DNA of 64,000 bases from Candidatus Saccharibacteria bacterium UBA6824 (GTDB lineage Bacteria; Patescibacteriota; Saccharimonadia; Saccharimonadales; UBA10212), in contig DKEK01000005.1 in the NCBI GenBank assembly GCA_002452155.1, positions 70,675-134,674 on the forward strand. The letters are read 5' to 3'. Shown piece after piece: positions 1,333 to 35,950 of this stretch. The position numbers were made by a program, and so were the translations under genes. Each line of letters begins with the position of its first letter. Position 1 is the stretch's first letter. A model generated the notes under the pieces. The model did no database searches, was not told where the DNA came from, and saw only the letters and a program-made list of their open reading frames with translations.

Positions 1333-1348
1333 GGAGAGGTTGAAGTTG

Positions 1349-1366
1349 GTTGCGACGTGGTGGGCG
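1349..1366 (-). repeat. 18-nt exact copy of the tRNA-Val 3' end plus trailer (CGCCCACCACGTCGCAAC)
   Basis: The minus-strand reading is identical to 13832..13849 (+), which covers the last 9 nt of tRNA-Val(TAC) and 9 nt of its trailer. No complete tRNA can be folded around this copy. Confidence 0.8.
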
Positions 1367-1419
1367 AAAGAGGACAGCGCTCCGGCTATCGCGCGGGGCT
1401 AACCTCCACAGCCTATTTT

Positions 1420-1506
1420 TGGTGGCGCAGAAAGGACTTGAACCTTCACGGGCGTAAGCCCACTACGTCCTGAACGTAGCGTGTATACCAATTTCACCAC
1501 TGCGCC
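1420..1506 (-). tRNA. tRNA-Leu(CAG)
   Basis: Hand-folded cloverleaf. Acceptor stem GGCGCAG/CTGCGCC, encoded ACCA end, anticodon loop TTCAGGA (CAG), long variable arm, T-loop GGTTCAAGTCC. Confidence 0.9.
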
Positions 1507-1516
1507 ATCAAAATTA

Positions 1517-1752
1517 TTATACTAGTGATTTTAGATATTCTTTACCAGCACCGGACTTTAAATACTTCTCTCTTGTACGGGCAGCGAGACGACTCGCACA
1601 TGTTTCTTGATAGATAATCCTAAAAGGCGCATATGATCGAGTCGTTCTTTCATGCCCTTGATTATGTCGCTTGACACGTCTATCAAGGTCACTAGTCAAG
1701 CCACGTATATATAGTTTTTAGTTAGGCTTTTCAGTGCATAAACTTTGTACAT
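1517..1752 (-). pseudogene. GIY-YIG (COG2827/YhbQ-like URI-domain) nuclease gene with a 1-nt frameshift
   Basis: ATG at 1752 gives MYKVYALKSLTKNYIYVA followed by a stop. The -1 frame continues (G)LTSDLDRRVKRHNQGHERTTRSYAPF...REKYLKSGAGKEYLKSLV (track ORF 1517..1699). Restoring one G near 1700-1704 (GTGGC to GTGGGC) would give a canonical YIYVGLTSDL GIY-YIG core. It could instead be a sequencing error. Confidence 0.6.
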
Positions 1753-1775
1753 AATCTATGTCCAATCGTAGCGCG

Positions 1776-1817
1776 CCTGCCTGCCGCCTGCCTACCGGCA
1801 GGCAGGCGGCAGGCAGG
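1776..1817. repeat. 42-nt perfect hairpin, extended copy of the CCTGCC...GGCAGG palindrome family
   Basis: CCTGCCTGCCGCCTGCCT-ACCGGC-AGGCAGGCGGCAGGCAGG, with an 18-bp perfect stem. The core CCTGCCTACCGGCAGGCAGG is identical to the copy at 34952..34971. Confidence 0.9.
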
Positions 1818-1917
1818 TCTACCAATTCCGCCATTCGCCCGGAATAACTGTATTCAGTTTAACAGATAGAATATTAACTCATGCTATGATATTAGCGAAT
1901 GATCTAAGGGGTTATAT

Positions 1918-3546
1918 TTGAATAAAATCGCGCATTATTTGCAGGGACATATCGCCGGAGAAGTTACTTCTAACCCGGATGCTAGGCGGTACTTTGCGCA
2001 TGATGCCAGTATCTTAGAAATAGTTCCAACGGCTATTGTTTACCCGCGTAATGAAAACGACGTCCGCAAAAGTATTCGTTTCGCCTGGCAGCTCGCTGGA
2101 CGTGGTAGAAAACTACCTATCACGCCGCGCGGTATGGGTAGCGGCACCTCGGGTTCCGCGATCGGTAGCGGTATTGTTTTGGTTTTCCCGGCCCACATGA
2201 ATAAAGTTGTCTCACTGGATACCAAGAAGCGCACAATGTCTGCCCAACCGGGCGCCAACTTTGGGGCGCTTTTGCAAATGCTCCAAACTCACGGCCTGTT
2301 TTTGCCGCCTTATCCTGCGTCAAAAGATTACGCGACCATCGGCGGCGCTGTGGCTAATAATGCCATTGGCGAAAAATCGGTCAAATATGGGGCCATGGCC
2401 GATTTTGTTCAAAGTCTGCGGGTAGTGCTGAGCAATGGCGAGCTTATTGAAACCGGCCCCTTGAGCCAAAAAGAACTCAGCCACAAGATGGGGTTGCAGA
2501 CTTTGGAGGGCGAAATTTATCGCTTGATTGACGCCCTACTTGAAGAAAATGCCCACCTTTTGCCGGTTGGCCGGGAGCGCCTTAAAGCCCGCTTTAGCAG
2601 CATCGGCTATAACATCTTTGACGTCAAAAAAAATGGTCAGTTCGATTTAACACCTTTATTTACCGGTTCATTGGGTACATTGGGGGTCATTACGGAAGTC
2701 ACGTTTAGGGTTGCTCCGCACCACCCGCGCACCACCCAAATGCTGGTCAGCCTGGAAGAACTTGAGGACTTAGGCGATATCCTACCGAGTCTTTTGGACC
2801 TCAAGCCAAGTATGGCCGATATGCTCAGCCGCGCAGCCGTCCAACAAATCCTGGAGCTTAACCCTAATCAATTGTCTGACTTATCAATGCCTCATGAGGC
2901 TTTCATGCACTTGTTTATTGAGTTTGACGACTCGAAAGAGGCCGATAGAAAGAAAAAAGTAAAACATCTGCAAAAAATTGTCGATGGGCTTGGTGCATGG
3001 TCAGAAGTTTATGAAGATTTGCAGAGCCAGGAGCGCCTACGCAAACTGAGTGGCAGCGTAGCAATACTTCTCCAGCCGCAGGGCCCAGCTGTAGCCACGC
3101 CAATAGCCGAAGATATCTCTGTCCCGGTGGACAAGCTGGCCGACTTTCTGAAGAAAATCCAGCTGGTCTACCGCGAGGTTGGCCTGCCTCCCGCCCTCTG
3201 GGGTCAAGCCGGTATCGGCGTAGTACGGATGTGGCCGGCGCTGGATCTGGGACAAACCGGTGACCGCCAGAAACTGTTTAAGATCCAGGGTAGCCTGTAC
3301 GCCGCGGCTGTGCGCCATGGCGGCAGCATTAGCGCATCAGCCGGGGACGGCCGGGTCCGGGCCCCTTATAGCCCCATGGTCTACGGCCCGGAGGTTCATG
3401 CTCTAATGCTGAGCGTCAAAAAGATATTCGACCCGCGAGGGATTTTAAATCCTGGTGTAAAGACCGCTTCAACAGAAGAAATAAAAGTTCTAATGCGAAG
3501 TAGTTATAGTTTGTCCAATTTTTACGACTATCTGCCCCGAAGTTAA
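1918..3546 (+). CDS. FAD-linked oxidase (GlcD / D-lactate dehydrogenase-like, PCMH-type FAD-binding domain)
   Basis: 542-aa ORF with TTG start. The N-terminal FAD-binding region (PRGMGSGTSGSAIG) and C-terminal FAD-oxidase domain ending ...KKIFDPRGILNPG are typical of the GlcD family. Confidence 0.75.
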   Translation: MNKIAHYLQGHIAGEVTSNPDARRYFAHDASILEIVPTAIVYPRNENDVRKSIRFAWQLAGRGRKLPITPRGMGSGTSGSAIGSGIVLVFPAHMNKVVSLDTKKRTMSAQPGANFGALLQMLQTHGLFLPPYPASKDYATIGGAVANNAIGEKSVKYGAMADFVQSLRVVLSNGELIETGPLSQKELSHKMGLQTLEGEIYRLIDALLEENAHLLPVGRERLKARFSSIGYNIFDVKKNGQFDLTPLFTGSLGTLGVITEVTFRVAPHHPRTTQMLVSLEELEDLGDILPSLLDLKPSMADMLSRAAVQQILELNPNQLSDLSMPHEAFMHLFIEFDDSKEADRKKKVKHLQKIVDGLGAWSEVYEDLQSQERLRKLSGSVAILLQPQGPAVATPIAEDISVPVDKLADFLKKIQLVYREVGLPPALWGQAGIGVVRMWPALDLGQTGDRQKLFKIQGSLYAAAVRHGGSISASAGDGRVRAPYSPMVYGPEVHALMLSVKKIFDPRGILNPGVKTASTEEIKVLMRSSYSLSNFYDYLPRS

Positions 3547-3602
3547 TGCGCTCGTGCTTGCCGGACCTATACCTCTGTACTGTAGTAGAATATATCTGGT
3601 AC

Positions 3603-3676
3603 GGCGCGATGGCCGAGGAGTTAGGCAAAGGTCTGCAAAACCTTTTACACGGGTGCGAATCCCGTTCGCGCCTCCA
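3603..3676 (+). tRNA. tRNA-Cys(GCA)
   Basis: Acceptor stem GGCGCGA/TCGCGCC, anticodon stem AAGGT/ACCTT with loop CTGCAAA, T arm ACGGG-TGCGAAT-CCCGT, encoded CCA. Confidence 0.9.
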
Positions 3677-3679
3677 CCT

Positions 3680-3764
3680 GGGCGGGTGGCGGAATTGGTA
3701 TACGCTGCGGACTTAAAATCCGTTGCCGCAAGGCTTGAGGGTTCGAGTCCCTCCCCGCCCACCA
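3680..3764 (+). tRNA. tRNA-Leu(TAA)
   Basis: Acceptor stem GGGCGGG/CCCGCCC, anticodon loop CTTAAAA, long variable arm, T arm GAGGG-TTCGAGT-CCCTC, encoded CCA. It lies 3 nt after tRNA-Cys. Confidence 0.9.
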
Positions 3765-3848
3765 CGTCAGAATTCTTTACGACCAAACATCAAAAAGGCG
3801 CAATCAAGTGGTGCCTTTTTTGTTTGGTCTAGCATGATTCTTCCTTTT

Positions 3849-3876
3849 CCGTTTTACGTAGCTCCCCGTAAAACGG
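3849..3876. repeat. conserved hairpin CCGTTTTACG-N8-CGTAAAACGG (copy 1 of 2)
   Basis: 10-bp stem. The ~35-nt context CCTTTTCCGTTTTACGTAGCTCCCCGTAAAACGGGTTA is nearly identical to 13920..13955. Both copies lie about 85 nt downstream of a tRNA whose 3' end reads CCCACCACGTC. Confidence 0.8.
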
Positions 3877-3976
3877 GTTAGCCACAGGGCTCAAGTTGCA
3901 TTCAAAGATTGCATAATTTATAAATAAACGTTATCGTAAGGATACTAAACATAAGCGGTGGGTAGAGGGGATATTT

Positions 3977-4123
3977 ATGTCCTGGGATTGGAGCTCACCT
4001 ATCGCTCTTGGCCTGTTTCTGCTCATGGCAAGCGTGGCGCTTGTCGGCGTCAGCGTAGCCATCGCGGTTGTCAGCGGCCGAGCCAAAGTCGCTGATCTAC
4101 CAGCATTCGCCTTCTGGCGCTAA
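3977..4123 (+). CDS. small hydrophobic protein (48 aa), hypothetical
   Basis: Not in the track because it is under 60 aa. GGTAGAGGGG lies upstream of the ATG. Translation is MSWDWSSPIALGLFLLMASVALVGVSVAIAVVSGRAKVADLPAFAFWR (one TM helix). A hairpin plus T-run follows at about 4141-4176. Confidence 0.4.
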   Translation: MSWDWSSPIALGLFLLMASVALVGVSVAIAVVSGRAKVADLPAFAFWR

Positions 4124-4277
4124 ATTTCTATTCTCGAGAATAAAAAATCCCCGCTCATTGTGGCCGGGATTTTTTATATTTGCTATACTTACCCCTGTTC
4201 TCAGTCTAATCCAATTTTGTGAAAACCCGCTTTAGCAGTTTTTACGAAATTGAAAGGAGTCCGCCTAGGCGGACGAC

Positions 4278-4354
4278 GCGGGTGTAGCTCAGTTGTTTAG
4301 AGCGCGTCCTTGCCAAGGACGAGGCCAGGGGTTAGAGTCCCCTCACCCGCACCA
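4278..4354 (+). tRNA. tRNA-Gly(GCC)
   Basis: Acceptor stem GCGGGTG/CACCCGC, anticodon stem CGTCC/GGACG with loop TTGCCAA, encoded CCA. A perfect 16-bp palindrome GTCCGCCTAGGCGGAC (4259..4274) precedes it. Confidence 0.9.
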
Positions 4355-4435
4355 TCCTACTTCGCGTAAAGCTTCGTAGGATTTGTGCGAAGTAGGATGC
4401 CCTCCATAGCCTTTTGGCGACGGAGGGCTTATTGT

Positions 4436-4681
4436 ATGACTATGTTTTACGTATATCTACTTAGGAGTCTTAATTATAACCAGACTTATGTCGGTTTCTC
4501 GAGAGACGTCCAAATAAGATTAAATCACCACAACGAAGGAAAAAGTCCGCATACAAGCAAATACAAACCCTGGAAACTGGTAACGTATTTTGGTTTTGAA
4601 TCTGAATCAAGAGCAAGGGAATTTGAGAAGTACCTAAAAACAGGATCGGGCATTGCTTTTGCCAGAAGACATCTTTTTTAG
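4436..4681 (+). CDS. GIY-YIG (COG2827/YhbQ-like URI-domain) nuclease
   Basis: Translation is M(T)MFYVYLLRSLNYNQTYVGFSRDVQIRLNHHNEGKSPHTSKYKPWKLVTYFGFESESRAREFEKYLKTGSGIAFARRHLF, a canonical small GIY-YIG layout. The track ORF starts at 4385; ATG 4436 or 4442 is the more likely start. Confidence 0.75.
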   Translation: MTMFYVYLLRSLNYNQTYVGFSRDVQIRLNHHNEGKSPHTSKYKPWKLVTYFGFESESRAREFEKYLKTGSGIAFARRHLF

Positions 4682-4718
4682 TTCCACCTGCCCGCCGAAG
4701 CTTTAGCGTAGGGTGGGT

Positions 4719-4740
4719 CACCCGCACCAAGCATAAGTAT
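4719..4740 (+). repeat. att-like junction: second copy of tRNA-Gly 3' end (TCACCCGCACCA) overlapping left copy of 17-bp direct repeat GCACCAAGCATAAGTAT
   Basis: TCACCCGCACCA at 4719..4730 repeats 4343..4354, the tRNA-Gly 3' end. GCACCAAGCATAAGTAT at 4724..4740 is repeated exactly at 6309..6325. Confidence 0.85.
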
Positions 4741-4806
4741 TATGACCTCTGTTTATTCAGGGGTTTTTTATTTAGGTATATACTGAGATTAAGGTTAATA
4801 GACACA

Positions 4807-6186
4807 ATGAGCAACAAACGACCTCTGCTAAAAGCCTTGAGGCAGACCATGATTCAAGATGTACCGGCTTACGCCAACAAGTTTTTCTACTCCCTTGGAT
4901 TTCTGTCGATGACTTGTTTTATGATTCTGCTCGTGACGGGAGTCGTAATGGCGGGTTTCGGTCCCGATTGGTGGCTGACTAGCGGGATTGGCAGATACTT
5001 TCGCAGTGTCCATCTTTGGGCCACCCAAGCTTTTGTACTGTTTATTATTCTGCATCTTCTGATTGTATTTTTGACTTCCGGCTTTAAAAAACCGCGGCGT
5101 TTGACTTGGGTAATAGGTGCCATAATGTTCTTCTTCGTGATAGCCGAAGCCGAGTTTGGTTATGTACTGCGGGGCGATTTTTCCGGCCAATGGCGCTCTC
5201 TACAAGGAGCCGATTTCTATAACGGTACTGGCATCGGCGCCTGGATTAACAATATTAACTACCGACAGATTTATGGCATTCATGTTGTAGCAATTCCGAT
5301 TATCCTGCTGGGGCTGCTGTTTTTACACTACTTACGAATACGTATCTTGGGCATTGCCGAGCCCTACCGGAAAGACGTTCATGTGCCGACAGTTAGGGCA
5401 AACCACAAGGCGCTGTTTGTCCGGGGTGGTGTACTAATAGGACTAATCTTAGCCTTGTCTGTTTTATTGCCATCACCATTTTTGGAACCTAACACCGCTA
5501 AACAAGTCGCCGCCAGCGACCCTAAACTGGTAGGCCAAACTCTCATAAAAGAATTTGACCGCTCTTCCGACACCGCGGGGTATCTCGATAGTATTGACCC
5601 CTATAAATATGATACAAGGAGTATTTATGTAGAGCAGCCATATGCTCAGTTGTCTAGCCTGTTACATACGCCAAACTTGCTGCAAAAATATAATTCTGAG
5701 CCGCAGGCTTTGCAGGACTCTCAACTGAAAGCTGCCCAAGACTACTTTGATAATGCCTACCCGGCCAAAGCCGATGCTAACAACCCGCTTGAGCCAGTCG
5801 TAATATCTTTGATAAACATGGCTTCAGCCGGGCTGTACCAGCCGGCGCTTAACTCGGCTAGCCCGTCGGGCGACCAAACGACCTACGGCCTGCGTTTTTT
5901 GGCCGACACCGGTGTCATGGATGACCGGGCGCAAGCTCTAGGCATTACCACCGACCAATATGGTATGCTGCGCGAAGAAAAGGGGCGTATTCCCCCCGGT
6001 GCTTGGTGGCTAGCGCCAATCGGCCTGCTTAATCATACCGTACTGGCTCATGACGATAACGGTGACCGAGACGGTGCCATAATCATGGGGTTATTCTTAC
6101 TGTTACTTATTGCATTCCCTTACATACCAGGCTTAAACCGACTGCCCGAGTGGCTGAAGGTCTCCAAACTAATTTGGCGTGTATAG
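4807..6186 (+). CDS. di-haem cytochrome b N-terminal-domain protein fused to an unknown ~200-aa domain and a C-terminal TM helix
   Basis: 459 aa. The cytochrome b/b6 N-terminal pattern is present: FYSLGFLS..., helix B HLWATQAFVLFIILH (H-x13-H), helix D HVVAIPIILLGLLFLH (H-x14-H), and WVIGAIMFF...GYVL between them. No Rieske or cytochrome c partner gene is adjacent. Confidence 0.7.
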   Translation: MSNKRPLLKALRQTMIQDVPAYANKFFYSLGFLSMTCFMILLVTGVVMAGFGPDWWLTSGIGRYFRSVHLWATQAFVLFIILHLLIVFLTSGFKKPRRLTWVIGAIMFFFVIAEAEFGYVLRGDFSGQWRSLQGADFYNGTGIGAWINNINYRQIYGIHVVAIPIILLGLLFLHYLRIRILGIAEPYRKDVHVPTVRANHKALFVRGGVLIGLILALSVLLPSPFLEPNTAKQVAASDPKLVGQTLIKEFDRSSDTAGYLDSIDPYKYDTRSIYVEQPYAQLSSLLHTPNLLQKYNSEPQALQDSQLKAAQDYFDNAYPAKADANNPLEPVVISLINMASAGLYQPALNSASPSGDQTTYGLRFLADTGVMDDRAQALGITTDQYGMLREEKGRIPPGAWWLAPIGLLNHTVLAHDDNGDRDGAIIMGLFLLLLIAFPYIPGLNRLPEWLKVSKLIWRV

Positions 6187-6308
6187 TTTCTTACGTGTAA
6201 CTCCCAGCTCTCACTTGGTTAGTAGATACTCCTGATACGGCACTTCCAATATCTTCCTCCACCTCACCATCTCATCCCCAATCAGGTGTAATGATCTTCC
6301 TACTTACT

Positions 6309-6325
6309 GCACCAAGCATAAGTAT
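6309..6325 (+). repeat. right copy of 17-bp direct repeat GCACCAAGCATAAGTAT
   Basis: Exact match to 4724..4740. The two copies bracket only the cytochrome b-like gene. Confidence 0.85.
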
Positions 6326-11480: not shown

Positions 11481-11556
11481 GGCTCTTTAGCTCAGTTGGT
11501 AGAGCAGAGGCTTGAAGAGCCTTGTGTCCCCAGTTCGAGTCTGGGAGGAGCCACCA
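11481..11556 (+). tRNA. tRNA-Phe(GAA)
   Basis: GGCTCTTTAGCTCAGTTGGTAGAGC D arm, anticodon loop TTGAAGA, T arm CCCAG-TTCGAGT-CTGGG, encoded CCA. Confidence 0.9.
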
Positions 11557-29486: not shown

Positions 29487-31263
29487 GTATTTTGCCGGCA
29501 TTTTTAGGAGTTTTACTGACCCAAAACGGGCTGAGTTTGACATCGACTTCTTTGACACCCGGCAGATTGCCGAGCGCTGAGCGGATATCACCGGTTTTTT
29601 GGCCGGCGGCGGTTTTTTTGACAGCGGCGACATCAATGATCGGCACCGCGGTGGTGTCTTCCCTTAGCGCTAATGTGACTTTGGTCGGCGCCTCTTGAGA
29701 CGTGACACTGACCGTCAAGCCCTTAAGCACATCGTCGCTGCTGAGTTTTTGTTTTTTAGTGTCAATCTGCTTAGACATCTGGTCGGCAACCGCTTTTCTG
29801 AGGTCGTCATTTTTGAGCGTTAGTAGGGTATAGGTAATTTTAACGGTCACATTGGCATTGGTGGCCGGCTGACCGACCGGCACTGATGAAGTTAGCGCCG
29901 GGTCGCTCAGTTTAAGGGTTGAGGTAATGAGGTATAGTCCCTGGTCGCTAAGTTGTTTTTGCCAGTCTTTAGTGAATTTGTCGGTGTCGGCACTGGTAAT
30001 TTTTTGTTTAGCGCCATCGACGTCTGACTGGCTAAGGACAGTAGCTGTATTATCAGTACCGCCGCTGGCGCTGCCGCTGGCGGCCACATCTGGGCGGCCG
30101 GACACACTGAAGCTGGTTGAACCAACATTATATTTACTGCCACCAGTTTGGGCCTTGATGGCTGTCGGGCTGTTAGCAGAATAATTCACACAGCTACCAG
30201 CGGCGCCACTTATACTAAAGCTCGTCTTGGCTTGGGTTATATAAGTTAGACTGTTATGGCTAAGACCGGTGCCTGCCGGTACGTCATCTGGGGTGCTAAA
30301 GGGCGCCGAGCAGTCTTGAGCTGACATTGTTACCGAACCGCTGGCTTTATCGCCGTTATTCTGCTGGCCGGTGGCATTAACGGCAGTCGTGGCCGTTTGG
30401 TCCTTGGTTTGCAGGGCGGCCGGAATGATGCCTTTGGCCTCGTCAAGAGTTTTGGCGCCGCCGTCAGCTGTTAAATTAAAGCTGGCTGAAACCGGCAGAC
30501 TGATAGTTTTGAGGGTTATGGTGGCCTTGGGCAGCACAAATAGTGCCAAGATCAAAAAGACAATAAAGAGTACTAAACCGGCGATGCCCATGCCCAGGCT
30601 CAGGCGGAATTTGTCAAAGTTTGGTACTTTCAATCCCTTGTCTTTGAAGGCTTTAGCCTTGGCTTTGGCAGATGCCGTTACCCCCCCAACTTCCGCGGAG
30701 CCAGTCTCTACATCGTCCAAGGGGATGGTTTCGGGTTCTTCCACTTCAGCGGCCGCGGCCAGCTCGCCGATTGAATGGTTATAATCTATTTTGGCGTTAC
30801 CTTCGTCAATCTCTGCTTCTGGCTCCTCGGCTATTGCTTCGGCCGACGAAAGGGGTTTCCCCGGCCCTTCGTGGATGGGTACGGGTGAGGGTGGAATGTG
30901 CGGCTTGCTAGTCAAATTTTTAGCTATGTGCAGTCCGGCGGCACCGGCTAACGGTGACAGTGCCGAATCGCTGGTTATTAAAACGGCGCTTCTTCCGGCG
31001 CTGTCGGCAGCCCTCTTTAGCAGGCGCATATTGACAATGCTCTGCATGACGGTTGCCCGCTTAGGTAGTACCAGTGCCACCATCTTCTCTTTAGCGTTTT
31101 CAACTTTGTCGATTATCGATGTGATCTCATCGTCAAGGTCAATGTAAACTACGTCTTTGCCCGGTTTGGCCAGATTTTTATCGGCGCTCATCCCGTTAGA
31201 AGTCCGATTCGCGTCTGGCAAATCGGCAGTATTCCCCGAATTCTTACTTTTAACGGGACTCAT
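29443..31263 (-). CDS. bitopic membrane protein (cytoplasmic N-domain, one TM, large T/S/A-rich external domain), unknown function
   Basis: 606 aa. The start overlaps the ftsA-like stop by 4 nt. TM helix is MGIAGLVLFIVFLILALFVLP. Confidence 0.55.
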   Translation of the reverse strand: MSPVKSKNSGNTADLPDANRTSNGMSADKNLAKPGKDVVYIDLDDEITSIIDKVENAKEKMVALVLPKRATVMQSIVNMRLLKRAADSAGRSAVLITSDSALSPLAGAAGLHIAKNLTSKPHIPPSPVPIHEGPGKPLSSAEAIAEEPEAEIDEGNAKIDYNHSIGELAAAAEVEEPETIPLDDVETGSAEVGGVTASAKAKAKAFKDKGLKVPNFDKFRLSLGMGIAGLVLFIVFLILALFVLPKATITLKTISLPVSASFNLTADGGAKTLDEAKGIIPAALQTKDQTATTAVNATGQQNNGDKASGSVTMSAQDCSAPFSTPDDVPAGTGLSHNSLTYITQAKTSFSISGAAGSCVNYSANSPTAIKAQTGGSKYNVGSTSFSVSGRPDVAASGSASGGTDNTATVLSQSDVDGAKQKITSADTDKFTKDWQKQLSDQGLYLITSTLKLSDPALTSSVPVGQPATNANVTVKITYTLLTLKNDDLRKAVADQMSKQIDTKKQKLSSDDVLKGLTVSVTSQEAPTKVTLALREDTTAVPIIDVAAVKKTAAGQKTGDIRSALGNLPGVKEVDVKLSPFWVSKTPKNAGKIHVVQQQVSSGNTSP

Positions 31264-32585
31264 GTCCGTAGCACCTTATTAAGTTTAGCCTTTACGCTGG
31301 TGCGCTCGGGCGCGGCACCGGAATTTACCGTATCCATACCAACCCGGAGCAAGCCCATGGCGGTAATGTAAGTGTGGTCGTTAACGTCGCCCGTGGCATC
31401 AGTGATACCTATCACTTCTTCCGGCTGGATGTGCTGGACAATCGGCTTTTTGGTGAAGGGCAGATTTTTATGCCATTTGCCGTCTTCCAGCTGTTTCATT
31501 AACATTTCAAGTGATGAGCCGCCGCCGCATAGCAGCAGACGGTGTGGCAAATGGTCGAGCTTGCTAAATTCGGCCAGTGCCAGTTCAACGCCGCTAATCC
31601 AGACATTCAGGGTTTTTTCCAGAGCTTTTTCTATCTCCGGCCGCTGCTTGGCGGCTACCAACTGGCCGCCCAGGCCAACTTTTAGGGCTTCGGCCTTGGT
31701 AAAATCAATGTCCAGTTCGCGTTCGATGGCGTGGGTAAAGGCCCGGCCGCCAATGCCAAACATTTTAGTACCCTCAACGCCGCCCTCGTTGACCACGGCA
31801 ATATCGGTTGTACCACCGCCGACGTCCATCAATATGGCGCTCAGGCTGGTGTTGGGGTCGTCGCCAACTACCGAGCGGGCAACCGCAAAAGGTTCGGCGG
31901 CCACGGCCAGCAACTCTAGGTCGAGTTCGGTGGCCGTACGCTCCAGCGCCCCGATATGAATCATCGGCGCAAAAGCCGTGTACATTTCTACTAATATGTC
32001 CTTGCCCTGGAAGCCAACGGGGTTGGTGACTTTATAGCCGTCGATATCAATCCGCACCAAGGCACTATTGACTAAGCGCACCTGAACGTCCTTACCGCCT
32101 AGTTCCCACGCCAGCTGTTGACGGGCTTTTTGCTCGGCGCGCTCCTGCACCAGCTCGATAATCCGTTCCATCTCATCAATGTCCAGTTCTTTGGCTTGGT
32201 TATTGCGGGTAAATCTGACCGTACTGGTCGTGCCTTTCACCAGTTCGCCAGCAATGCCAATAACAGCGGTCCGGGCGGAAACTCCGGCTTGGGATTCAGC
32301 CGCTGCTAAGGCCTGGTCGCAGTTAGCCACCACAGCCGCGATGTCGGCAATCGCCCCAGCCTGCATATCAGCCAGTTCTTGGTGAGAGCGGCCAACACCT
32401 ATAATCTCGACTTCATTGCCGACCACCCTGCCGACTAGGGCTTTGATAAATTCGGTGCCAATATCCAGCGCTACCAGGTAGTTTTCTACCGGCTTGCCCT
32501 GCCTGCCGGCAGGCAGGCGCGCCTTCAGCTGTGAGACTTTTGGCACTTTTGCCCTGATATTTTTAACCCTGTCGGCAATAGCCAT
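31260..32585 (-). CDS. actin-like ATPase of the FtsA/PilM family (probable FtsA)
   Basis: LVALDIGTEFIKALVG..., IGIAGELV, LMDVGGGTTDIAVV and LLLCGGGS are ASKHA phosphate and adenosine motifs in FtsA-like order. No ftsZ is adjacent. Confidence 0.7.
   Translation of the reverse strand: MAIADRVKNIRAKVPKVSQLKARLPAGRQGKPVENYLVALDIGTEFIKALVGRVVGNEVEIIGVGRSHQELADMQAGAIADIAAVVANCDQALAAAESQAGVSARTAVIGIAGELVKGTTSTVRFTRNNQAKELDIDEMERIIELVQERAEQKARQQLAWELGGKDVQVRLVNSALVRIDIDGYKVTNPVGFQGKDILVEMYTAFAPMIHIGALERTATELDLELLAVAAEPFAVARSVVGDDPNTSLSAILMDVGGGTTDIAVVNEGGVEGTKMFGIGGRAFTHAIERELDIDFTKAEALKVGLGGQLVAAKQRPEIEKALEKTLNVWISGVELALAEFSKLDHLPHRLLLCGGGSSLEMLMKQLEDGKWHKNLPFTKKPIVQHIQPEEVIGITDATGDVNDHTYITAMGLLRVGMDTVNSGAAPERTSVKAKLNKVLRT
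32498..32517. repeat. 20-nt perfect palindrome CCTGCCTGCCGGCAGGCAGG inside the ftsA-like gene
   Basis: Exact palindrome, translated on the minus strand as LPAGRQ within the N-terminal tail ...KARLPAGRQGKPVENY. Confidence 0.9.
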
Positions 32586-34631: not shown

Positions 34632-35696
34632 TTAGACTACTATTCCTCCTCCCAGGCATTGGTCGTCGGAGTAGAAGACGGCGGATTGGCCGGGAGTTAG
34701 TGCCCGTACGTCTTCCTCCAAGTCAGCACTCCAGAAATTACTTGAGCGGTTAAGTTTTTTTACTGTAATCAACTTGGCACGGTGACGAGTGCGGACAAAA
34801 AGTTCTTGGTCCTTTTGAGGTTGGCTATTTATCCAATGAATGCCGGTCAGTTTGATCTGATTATTCCATAACCTATTGTCTTGCAGGTCGGTTGTGACGT
34901 GAATCTCATTCTTCTTTATATCTTTACCGACCACGTAAAACGGCAAGCCACCCTGCCTACCGGCAGGCAGGCGCCCTCCAGTTCCTAGGCCGTGGCGCTG
35001 GCCGATAGTGTAGAAAAAAGCGCCATCGTGCTCCCCAAGCGTCAGGCCTTTTTGGTCGATAATCTTGCCCGGCGTTTCCTTGATGTACTGCTTTAGAAAA
35101 TCTTTGATACTAACTTTGCCTACAAAACAGATGCCCATGCTTTCTTTTTTATCAGCCGTTACTAGGCTGGCTTTTTTAGCCAGGGCTCTGACTTCGGGTT
35201 TTGTCAGTCCGCCAAGCGGGAATAGGGTCTTACTGAGCGCGGTGGAGTCTACGCGGTGCAAGAAGTAAGTCTGGTCTTTATTGCCATCTTTAGCCGTGAG
35301 TAGCTGGCCGTTTTTAACTTTTGCATAATGACCGGTGGCAATATAGTCTGCCCCGCCGCGCAGCGCTGTTTCTAAAAACAACTTAAATTTAATTTCCTGA
35401 TTGCACATAATATCGGGGTTGGGCGTGAAGCCCGTCTCATAGCCTTGCAACATATATTTGACCACTTTATCAAAGTAATCTTTCTCAAAATCATAGACCT
35501 TAAACTCAATCCCAAGCTGCACGGCTACACGTTTAGCGTCTTGGTAGTCCTCTTTCCAAGGGCATTTCATGCCGGGCAAGTCCTGGCTCCAATTCTTCAT
35601 ATAGACGCCAACGACATGAAAGCCCTGCTCCTTTAGAAGCAAAGCGCTAACGGAGGAATCAACGCCCCCGCTTAAGCCAACGTAAACTGTTTTCAT
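34632..35696 (-). CDS. mnmA: tRNA 2-thiouridine(34) synthase MnmA
   Basis: PP-loop VGLSGGVDSS, catalytic Cys regions and ...YTIGQRHGLG... The track starts at TTG 35714; ATG 35696 (MKTVYVGLSGG) is more likely. Confidence 0.93.
   Translation of the reverse strand: MKTVYVGLSGGVDSSVSALLLKEQGFHVVGVYMKNWSQDLPGMKCPWKEDYQDAKRVAVQLGIEFKVYDFEKDYFDKVVKYMLQGYETGFTPNPDIMCNQEIKFKLFLETALRGGADYIATGHYAKVKNGQLLTAKDGNKDQTYFLHRVDSTALSKTLFPLGGLTKPEVRALAKKASLVTADKKESMGICFVGKVSIKDFLKQYIKETPGKIIDQKGLTLGEHDGAFFYTIGQRHGLGTGGRLPAGRQGGLPFYVVGKDIKKNEIHVTTDLQDNRLWNNQIKLTGIHWINSQPQKDQELFVRTRHRAKLITVKKLNRSSNFWSADLEEDVRALTPGQSAVFYSDDQCLGGGIVV
34952..34971. repeat. palindrome-family copy CCTGCCTACCGGCAGGCAGG inside mnmA
   Basis: One mismatch from the perfect palindrome. 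Translated as LPAGRQ in GLGTGGRLPAGRQGGLPFYVV, a loop between conserved blocks. Confidence 0.9.
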
Positions 35697-35710
35697 TGGC
35701 TTATAGTTTA

Positions 35711-35950
35711 TCAAACATCAAGGAAAACGGTGACTTTGTCGCTCTTGACGTGCATGACGGCTTGGTTAACCGTCATGGCAAAGTCGTCTTTGCCGGCTAT
35801 CCGCACTTTGACTTCCCCCGGTCTTAGTAAACACATGAAGTTTTTATGGCGCGGTAAAATATCAAATGGGCCGCTGTCATTGACGGCCGAGACACTGGCC
35901 GCCGGACCATCAAAATATACTTTGAACGGGGCGTAGATCTTTACGGCCAT
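35711..35950 (-). CDS. atpC: F1 ATP synthase subunit epsilon (short, beta-sandwich only)
   Basis: MAVKIYAPFKVYFDGPAASVSAVNDSGPFDILPRHKNFMCLL... It immediately follows atpD. Start chosen at ATG 35950 to avoid overlap with atpD. Confidence 0.75.
   Translation of the reverse strand: MAVKIYAPFKVYFDGPAASVSAVNDSGPFDILPRHKNFMCLLRPGEVKVRIAGKDDFAMTVNQAVMHVKSDKVTVFLDV

Follow-up and report, generated by a model that had tools for sequence, protein, structure and literature searches.

A GIY-YIG nuclease cassette inserted behind a tRNA-Gly gene and its probable mobility at tRNA and tmRNA gene ends

The DNA analyzed here is a 64-kb stretch of contig DKEK01000005.1 from Candidatus Saccharibacteria bacterium UBA6824 (the window, with coordinates that count from its first base). 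It contains a transfer RNA gene, tRNA-Gly(GCC), followed at once by a 375-bp segment (4355-4729) whose one open reading frame (ORF) encodes a 79-aa GIY-YIG nuclease. This cassette is an insertion relative to related genomes, its left junction is precise, and the tRNA-Gly gene was left intact by the insertion. The segment is probably a compact self-mobilising cassette that integrates immediately 3′ of the CCA of tRNA and transfer-messenger RNA (tmRNA) genes. An earlier reading, made from the sequence only, had proposed that such GIY-YIG genes are mobile, homing-like elements targeting tRNA ends. This is supported in substance, and the pattern of mobile insertion at the ends of tRNA genes is general. 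The term homing, however, fits poorly because the protein lacks a DNA-binding domain, the target is duplicated, and near-identical elements stand behind different tRNAs. The process appears closer to site-specific transposition than to homing between alleles.

The insertion at tRNA-Gly and its empty sites

The last 12 nt of tRNA-Gly, TCACCCGCACCA, occur exactly twice in the window, at a spacing of 375 bp. With one mismatch allowed, four matches were obtained against 0.24 expected, a number reached in none of 100 shuffles. The duplication had already been noticed in the sequence-only reading, and both copies stand. The second one lies at 4718-4729 and not at 4719-4730, one base off, and it starts 36 nt past the stop codon of the nuclease gene, which places it near the stop and not directly after it.

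The predicted empty junction, consisting of the tRNA end and the sequence after the second 12-mer, was scanned against a metagenome collection. It was matched in three contigs of related Saccharimonadales (L099, L100, and L101), where tRNA-Gly is joined straight to AGCATAAG..., the window sequence after the second 12-mer. These contigs have a single 12-mer and no GIY-YIG gene. Their tRNA-Gly is 97% identical to that of the window, the difference being one compensatory pair in the anticodon stem. Positions 351-385 of L100 are 97% identical to window positions 4718-4752, and the match extends through the old trailer into the terminator, where the stem changes are compensatory. The flavin adenine dinucleotide (FAD) oxidase of the empty-site contigs is 60% identical to that of the window, which indicates that they are relatives at the genus or family level. 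Because L099-L101 are empty sites, the segment 4355-4729 was inserted, and 12 bp of the tRNA terminus were duplicated in the process. This agrees with the earlier view of the duplicated tRNA 3′ end as an insertion footprint to which empty sites in relatives should correspond. The nuclease had also been described as the sole cargo, with no integrase. Indeed, the insertion holds one 79-aa ORF and, at only 375 bp, has no room for an integrase. What follows the duplicate is what followed the tRNA before the insertion.

A repeat of just 12 nt could in principle be a product of chance or of assembly, which is extremely improbable here. The two copies stand against about 0.24 expected with one mismatch, the same arrangement is found in three contigs from different samples, and the flanks match empty alleles. 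Contigs from two other samples are identical to the window over the stretch covered, which shows that the arrangement is not an assembly artefact.

A second filled allele was found in L002, where the ORF is 72% identical to that of the window and the displaced end GCACCA, followed by the same trailer, is located 830 nt downstream, beyond an extra 226-aa ORF. L002 is an independent insertion event with a 6-nt duplicate. Its stretch from the GIY-YIG stop to the displaced tRNA-Gly end (3241-4069) contains a conserved element of about 50 nt that is also present in L011, and its 226-aa minus-strand ORF has no match in Pfam. This stretch is either element cargo or a later insertion. The three diverged elements of the window, L002, and L011 are all at tRNA-Gly(GCC). 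A search for an empty site by synteny with the cytochrome b gene gave none, the homologous contigs L095-L098 (82-94% identical) carrying different genes upstream, and look-ups of the exact protein returned the same strain only.

Family members and a repeated motif behind tRNA and tmRNA genes

A family scan with one genome per species gave 584 confirmed relatives, of which the best 80 loci were examined. These 80 belong to Saccharimonadales, other Patescibacteria, Alphaproteobacteria, Verrucomicrobia, Lentisphaerae, Planctomycetes, Nitrospirae, delta-proteobacteria, and others. A same-strand tRNA ends at most 400 nt upstream of the gene at 48 of the 80 loci, with 19 anticodon species represented, and a tmRNA gene is directly upstream at 13. 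Most of the remaining loci show either a fragment that ends in CCA or, between the tRNA and the ORF, a tandem array. The closeness of GIY-YIG genes to tRNAs, on which the sequence-only reading had staked its generality, was thus borne out: both GIY-YIG genes of the window adjoin tRNAs, and at least 61 of the 80 homologous loci lie just 3′ of a tRNA or tmRNA gene. The whole family comprises 19,685 clusters at 50% identity with E≤1e-3 and 4,811 with E≤1e-10. In full-text open-access papers and bioRxiv, no account was found of small GIY-YIG genes located behind genes for tRNA or tmRNA.

Across the family, the leader that precedes the ORF begins immediately after CCA. Proteins at least 68% identical to each other, with the same leader start TCCTGCTTC, are found behind tRNA-Ser, -Tyr, -Val, and -Leu. 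Other sets of this kind occur behind Gln, Thr, and Pro tRNAs, and behind a Val tRNA and tmRNA. Since related elements follow different tRNAs, the junction is set by the end of the RNA gene and not by one tRNA sequence.

The leader is a compound palindrome in which a single motif of about 24 nt appears in inverted orientation and then again in direct orientation. The motif has the pattern stem, (G/A)NAGC, loop, GCG N(A/C), stem, with a direct copy just 5′ of the ORF and an inverted copy at the tRNA end. The inverted copy is the exact reverse complement of the direct copy, including the unpaired letters and the loop (CTTG or TTTA). An inverted motif was observed within 45 nt of the tRNA end for 40 of 54 target tRNAs, compared with none of 21 other tRNAs of the same loci. 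Its stem opens with the tRNA's own CCA paired to TGG at 24 of 46 loci and with A76 at about a dozen further loci, the window included. A long helix equivalent to the window hairpin P1, with 9-19 positions and extending from C75/A76 as far as the TG that precedes the direct copy, is present at 44 loci.

The window conforms to this pattern (Table 1). Its left-end hairpin at 4354-4382 is the reverse complement of the family motif (minus-strand reading CCTACGAAGCTTTACGCGAAGTAGG), and P1 spans from C75-A76 of the tRNA to the TG just before the next hairpin. RNA folding of the hairpin region gave z = −5.6. The two hairpins reported in the sequence-only reading correspond to P1 and to the motif hairpin HP2, with arms that are 89% and 85% complementary. 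The near-terminal inverted sequences that it had pointed out, TAAAGCTTCG at 4367-4376 and CGAAGCTTTA at 4696-4705, are complementary at 10 of 10 positions, and they are opposite-orientation copies of the motif conserved across the whole family.

Covariation was tested on 31 fixed-length copies of the motif hairpin with 500 shuffles. Of the cells, 96% were paired, both-side changes were seen in 6 of 9 pairs, and no shuffle was as good. The two outer "loop" letters covary perfectly, being T-A in 17 copies and C-G in 14. The hairpins are under structural selection. We think that recognition of the motif takes place on DNA, folded into single-stranded structures or cruciforms, because the motif is used in both orientations. 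The hairpin leader likely has an RNA role as well. A purely RNA leader is made less plausible by the left hairpin, which is exactly the reverse complement of the motif with the unpaired letters included. Leader and trailer were compared with Rfam 15, whose self-cleaving ribozymes were included, at gathering and E≤10 thresholds, and only tRNA and tmRNA were matched, with no family for the hairpins. The best other match, BTnc231, reached 13.8-15.7 bits against a gathering score of 80.4. BTnc231 is a free-standing Bacteroides small RNA with its own transcription start and terminator (PMC7366714), and this together with the weakness of the match led us to take it as chance.

Downstream of the gene, copies of the tRNA 3′ terminus of at least 12 nt on the same strand were found at 8 of 51 loci and in none of 153 control searches. 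At 5 of 50 loci, the downstream duplicate was above the 99th percentile of a cross-locus control. Flanking duplications, which the sequence-only reading had proposed to look for around the other genes, recur in independent lineages. One end of the duplicate is fixed at the tRNA terminus, and the observed lengths are 6, 12, 14, 17, 21, 22, and about 30 nt. Young copies have an extra motif hairpin and then the duplicate of the tRNA 3′ terminus, and L033 repeats the layout of the window, with the ORF, motif hairpin, tRNA 3′ fragment, and terminator in succession. The duplicate leads into a terminator in the window and likewise in L033 and L057; in L020 it leads into the decayed remains of an older element. 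Tandem and decayed copies are both present in the family and, like the frameshifted second cassette of the window, are signs that insertion and decay have recurred.

tRNA and tmRNA genes are classic integrase targets, and these enzymes characteristically leave a direct repeat of the tRNA 3′ end as their footprint. The cassette could accordingly be a non-autonomous miniature integrative element, moved by a tyrosine integrase in trans, with the 12-mers as attL and attR cores. This is very unlikely because the repeats are of different lengths (6-30 nt) and have only the end at the terminus in common, whereas an integrase core would be constant. Furthermore, one element lineage is found at many tRNA species, its left junction falls exactly after CCA and not inside the tRNA, and what is conserved across phyla is the nuclease gene with its hairpins, not an integrase. 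An element carrying its own tRNA 3′ end, as integrase elements do, was also considered and was rejected because one lineage uses many tRNA species. A duplicate with one boundary fixed and the other variable is at odds with an integrase core and with the fixed stagger of a transposase. The pattern is more reminiscent, as we infer, of an insertion that is started by a nick and followed by an imprecise second break.

Some loci hold leader modules without an ORF, in tandem between the tRNA and the nuclease gene (L030, L065, L062, and L057). L030 has five leader copies with a period of 128 nt (about 2226-3000), L065 has four with a period of 101 nt (about 2472-3000), and L057 has an exact internal duplication of the leader (2756-3000). 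This suggests non-autonomous derivatives similar to miniature inverted-repeat transposable elements (MITEs), or repeated insertion. Separately, at about 2670-3290 of L022, the 3′ end of a gene resembling a tRNA or tmRNA (…TTCCCGCCAGCTCCTCCA) appears three times; the gene itself is called by neither ARAGORN nor Rfam. A terminator comes after one of these copies, and some 200 nt beyond it the remaining two enclose the cassette.

The nuclease and the proposed mechanism

The ORF at 4436-4681, already identified as GIY-YIG in the sequence-only reading, matches Pfam PF01541 with E=5.7e-16 (59 bits, cutoff 22.6). Homologues start at the Met encoded at 4442, which gives 79 aa. All of 35 homologues retain the catalytic residues Y5, Y16, G18, R26, H30, and E62. 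In the PDB, a profile search returned BH0048 (1zg2) at 2e-11, SLX1 at 1e-8 to 2e-6, and EF2693 (1ywl) at 2e-6. The AlphaFold model of the 79-aa protein has a confidence score (pLDDT) of 96.9 and the element order E-E-H-E-H-H, with the three-stranded sheet flanked by helices of the GIY-YIG superfamily in the predicted structure. The best folds found by Foldseek with this model were 1zg2 and Slx1, with template modeling (TM) scores of 0.67-0.72. Slx1 was matched at E of about 1e-3, and the I-TevI catalytic domain was marginal, at 0.4 or worse. The protein is nearer to the Slx1/UPF0213 (COG2827) lineage than to that of UvrC and the homing endonucleases such as I-TevI, and it is minimal, with no auxiliary domains. 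Judged from this model, it is a bare Slx1-like catalytic domain without a DNA-binding domain. No NCBIfam or PADLOC family, homing-endonuclease models included, matched the 79-aa protein.

Many family representatives are listed at 100-130 aa because gene callers extend the ORF upstream through the hairpin. The window's own 98-aa ORF arises in this way, 4385-4435 being the upstream extension in which the translated hairpin yields the N-terminal peptide MPSIAFWRRRAY. Spurious N-terminal peptides of the MPSIAFWRRRAY type are also seen in the representatives P0008, P0017, and P0020.

Classical homing would involve a double-strand break in an empty tRNA allele and copying of the cassette from a filled allele during repair. 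GIY-YIG is a homing-endonuclease fold, tRNA-Gly shows presence/absence polymorphism, and the diverged elements of the window, L002, and L011 all sit at tRNA-Gly(GCC); the T4 endonuclease SegB likewise sits and cuts in a tRNA cluster (PMC2330249). We nevertheless regard homing as unlikely. It leaves no target duplication, and one is present here and at seven other loci. Close elements with an identical left junction are found behind different tRNAs, with no flanking homology there. In addition, the protein has none of the DNA-binding domains found in the Seg and I-TevI enzymes, Slx1 is a far better match (about 1e-3 versus 0.4 in Foldseek), and the homing-endonuclease models of NCBIfam and PADLOC do not match it.

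For insertion behind tRNA genes by the cassette itself, we propose the following. The GIY-YIG protein itself presumably drives insertion, and a site-specific reaction guided by the hairpins is the model that we favor at present. The closest solved relatives of the nuclease cut branched and folded DNA. Insertion would start when the nuclease nicks at the foot of a hairpin or at the folded end of a tRNA gene, and an imprecise break of the second strand after the nick would produce duplications of variable length. No promoter-like site was found on the plus strand between tRNA-Gly and the ORF. The nuclease gene, which probably lacks a promoter of its own, would be expressed by read-through from the tRNA promoter. 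The GGAGG at 4422-4426, within the 3′ arm of HP2 and 9-15 nt 5′ of the start codon in the window, is likely the ribosome-binding site. The hairpins may permit processing of the tRNA 3′ end and mask this site, keeping expression low.

Several observations weigh against a self-mobilising cassette. Its mobility is something that we infer, and a 79-aa catalytic domain without a DNA-binding domain is unlikely as the sole site-specific enzyme. About 85% of the copies have no recognisable duplication, many of them ending at the stop codon, so duplication may not be an obligatory product of insertion. The ratio of nonsynonymous to synonymous substitution rates (dN/dS) of the ORF is 0.02-0.12 where synonymous sites are unsaturated. 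In some genera, Bradyrhizobium and Enterousia among them, the gene has stayed at one and the same tRNA. A locus usually holds one or two copies, and a tblastn search of 72,556 plasmid and 50,697 phage records found no family member. This selection, persistence, and absence from plasmids and phages would also fit a host-useful gene that rarely moves. Counts of G-U versus A-C in the helices (39 versus 26 and 12 versus 3) keep both RNA and single-stranded DNA as alternatives. The ORF is under strong purifying selection; between the copies of the window and L002/L011, synonymous sites are saturated and the proportion of nonsynonymous differences (pN) is about 0.15.

These observations bear on the view that a once-mobile cassette is now a resident gene useful to the host, placed behind tRNAs to borrow a strong promoter. 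It could, for example, resolve folded DNA or R-loops at tRNA genes under heavy transcription or interfere with integrases that use tRNA ends. Strong purifying selection and long retention at the same tRNA within genera speak for this view, as do the very large intact family (4,811 clusters of 50% identity at E≤1e-10), the lack of members among the plasmid and phage records scanned, and the closest solved relatives, which are repair and recombination nucleases. It leaves unexplained why the junction falls to the exact base after CCA at 19 tRNA species, why the motif also occurs inverted, and how the terminal duplications and the decayed copies in tandem arose. Nor does it account for the frameshifted copy of the window, and the gene is missing from close relatives. 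As the main explanation we hold it to be possible but rather doubtful. It is compatible with a mobile origin, and both can be true.

The cassette has partial counterparts among known systems. Its protein shares with the stand-alone UPF0213/Slx1-like proteins (BH0048, 1zg2; EF2693, 1ywl) and with Slx1 the same beta-beta-alpha-beta-alpha-alpha domain and the Tyr/Tyr/Arg/His/Glu residues. This lineage is the minimal GIY-YIG form (Dunin-Horkawicz et al. 2006, PMC1564403), for which mainly vertical descent was proposed and no function assigned; that study reported no link to tRNA, hairpins, or insertion. Slx1 itself needs Slx4 and a RING domain, neither of which is present in the window cassette. 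The Seg genes of T4-like phages, segB in particular, likewise have the nuclease as only cargo, tRNA adjacency, and presence/absence polymorphism (PMC2330249). In contrast to the cassette, Seg genes spread by break repair between homologous genomes without target duplication, have no hairpin ends, and are phage borne. GIY-YIG homing endonucleases (I-TevI, Seg, and Mob) have a joined DNA-binding domain, the Seg proteins being about 200 aa or more, whereas the window protein is a catalytic domain only.

Insertion sequences of the IS200/IS605 group are, like the cassette, very small, with hairpin ends that are imperfect palindromes and with insertion 3′ of a short fixed sequence that is base paired, the counterpart in the cassette being the pairing of CCA with TGG in the left hairpin. 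In contrast, they use an HUH Y1 transposase (TnpA), duplicate no target, and are not tRNA specific; the only ORF of the cassette is GIY-YIG. Integrase islands and prophages have the same target and footprint, duplicating the tRNA or tmRNA 3′ end while the gene stays functional, but they measure kilobases and have a tyrosine integrase and a fixed crossover core, where the cassette has 375 bp, no integrase, and variable repeats. The REPIN-RAYT system resembles the cassette in its single-copy nuclease-type gene, inverted short hairpins, vertical upkeep, and purifying selection, and the multiplication of its ORF-less hairpins is paralleled by the arrays in L030, L062, and L065. RAYTs are HUH enzymes, however, and REPINs are scattered over the genome, whereas cassette modules are found only behind tRNA and tmRNA genes. 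The cassette shares single features with SegB, IS200/IS605, integrase islands, and REPIN-RAYT and fails a defining one of each.

Among eukaryotes, Penelope-like elements employ nick-primed insertion with variable target duplications. In them the GIY-YIG nuclease enables integration, which may be compared with the role proposed for the cassette, and it is combined with a reverse transcriptase (PMC8557442). tRNA genes are also targeted by retrotransposons of compact eukaryotic genomes, such as Ty3 and Dictyostelium TRE (PMC5006619), for which, as for the cassette, they are safe landing sites. Unlike Ty3, TRE, and Penelope-like elements, the cassette has no reverse transcriptase.

It is possible, and we advance it tentatively, that the cassettes form a new class of prokaryotic transposable element, in which a minimal, structure-specific Slx1-like GIY-YIG nuclease acts as the "transposase". 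In such a class, the nuclease would recognise folded motif hairpins and locate the end of any tRNA or tmRNA gene in part through pairing of the element's TGG with the target's CCA. Insertion would be nick primed, and the duplication would have one fixed and one variable end. The Leu-type cassette described below would go further, destroying its target tRNA gene and bringing a replacement. The GIY-YIG element would then join integrases and eukaryotic retrotransposons as a user of tRNA landing sites.

Stand-alone GIY-YIG proteins (COG2827/UPF0213) are among the commonest unassigned bacterial proteins, and the link to a cassette gives them a concrete and testable biology. The cassettes also explain oddities of annotation such as N-terminal extensions like "PSIAFWRRRA" (translated hairpins) and stray tRNA 3′ fragments, as well as broken tRNA-Leu genes in Patescibacteria. 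As a natural system that marks a universal site with only about 375 bp and one 79-aa protein, they may be of interest for genome engineering.

A second cassette at tRNA-Leu and neighboring features

The second GIY-YIG cassette of the window splits a resident tRNA-Leu(CAG) (Table 1). Its GIY-YIG sequence is 36% identical to the first over 53 aa, and intact 78-aa homologues of this frameshifted gene have 72-77% identity. In L101, the site is empty, with a plain tRNA-Leu(CAG) between the same carboxypeptidase and FAD-oxidase genes. The nested layout of an outer broken tRNA-Leu, palindrome, nuclease, and inner intact tRNA-Leu is found in L102-L110, at the syntenic locus in L105-L110 and at a tRNA-Leu(TAG) locus elsewhere in L102-L104. 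From these arrangements, the Leu-type cassette apparently breaks the target tRNA gene and supplies a replacement.

Table 1. Features of the two GIY-YIG cassettes of the window and sequence of the empty tRNA-Gly junction
Feature	Position	Strand	Basis or remark
tRNA-Gly(GCC), intact, CCA encoded, target gene	4278-4354	+	ARAGORN; Rfam tRNA, 70.8 bits
Direct repeat copy 1, TCACCCGCACCA, last 12 nt of tRNA-Gly	4343-4354	+	
Inserted segment, 375 bp including one 12-mer copy	4355-4729	+	Absent from empty-site contigs L099, L100, L101
Long hairpin P1, arms 4353-4370 / 4382-4399, 89% complementary	4353-4399	+	
Left-end hairpin ATCCTAC-TTCGC-GTAAA-GC-TTCG-GTAGGAT, stem takes in A76 of the tRNA	4354-4382	+	
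Motif hairpin HP2 GCCCTCC-ATA-GCC-TTTT-GGC-GAC-GGAGGGC, arms 4399-4411 / 4416-4428, 85% complementary	4399-4428	+	
GIY-YIG nuclease gene, 79 aa from Met at 4442 (alternative ATG 4436)	4442-4681	+	Pfam
Right-end direct motif copy, partly degenerate, CCCGCC-GAAGC-TTTA-GCGTA-GGGTGGG, abutting the second 12-mer	4691-4717	+	Sequence reading; fold
Direct repeat copy 2, TCACCCGCACCA, displaced tRNA-Gly 3′ end	4718-4729	+	
Intrinsic terminator, originally of tRNA-Gly, now 3′ of the cassette	4744-4775	+	Homologous to L100 terminator after tRNA-Gly
Empty junction, ...CACCCGCACCA then AGCATAAG... directly			L099-L101
Empty-site sequence as tRNA end, then trailer, ...GGTTAGAGTCCCCTCACCCGCACCA / AGCATAAG...			
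Empty junction expected on excision, CACCCGCACCA / AGCATAAGT			
Second, different GIY-YIG cassette splitting resident tRNA-Leu(CAG)	1358-1840	−	
Outer 5′ tRNA-Leu fragment (first 24 nt)	1817-1840	−	Identical to L101 tRNA
41-nt GC palindrome	1776-1816	−	
Frameshifted GIY-YIG gene	1517-1752	−	
Intact, different inner tRNA-Leu(CAG)	1420-1506	−	Directly 3′ of frameshifted GIY-YIG
Outer 3′ tRNA-Leu end (last 17 nt)	1358-1374	−	Identical to L101 tRNA

The GC-rich palindrome CCTGCCT(G/A)CCGGCAGGCAGG occurs three times in the window (none expected), at 1776-1816, 32498-32517, and 34952-34971. The broken tRNA-Leu carries one copy in its D-arm, and the other two are within long minus-strand ORFs (31260-32585 and 34632-35714). 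Its candidacy as an element-specific end of the second cassette is weakened, since the same palindrome lies inside these two protein-coding ORFs. It is reminiscent of the small palindromic elements that insert in frame. In L102, the palindrome is also found in the T-loop of the outer tRNA.

The tRNA-Leu block of the window (1333-1917) is inverted with respect to the flanking carboxypeptidase and FAD-oxidase genes when compared with the empty L101 (1322-1455), and the same inversion is seen relative to the filled L105 (1375-1940). Close to tRNA-Gly, a perfect 7-bp hairpin, GTCCGCCTAGGCGGAC, is located at 4259-4274, 3 nt 5′ of the gene. Relatives have tRNA-Phe in place of this hairpin, and the window's own tRNA-Phe is at 11481.

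A cytochrome b-like gene (4807-6186) lies directly 3′ of the cassette. L099-L101 lack it there, and beyond tRNA-Gly their sequence runs to a homologue of window positions 6195-6315. Close homologues of this gene (82-94% identical) were found in unrelated gene neighborhoods, and the cytochrome b-like gene of the window may itself have been relocated or inserted.

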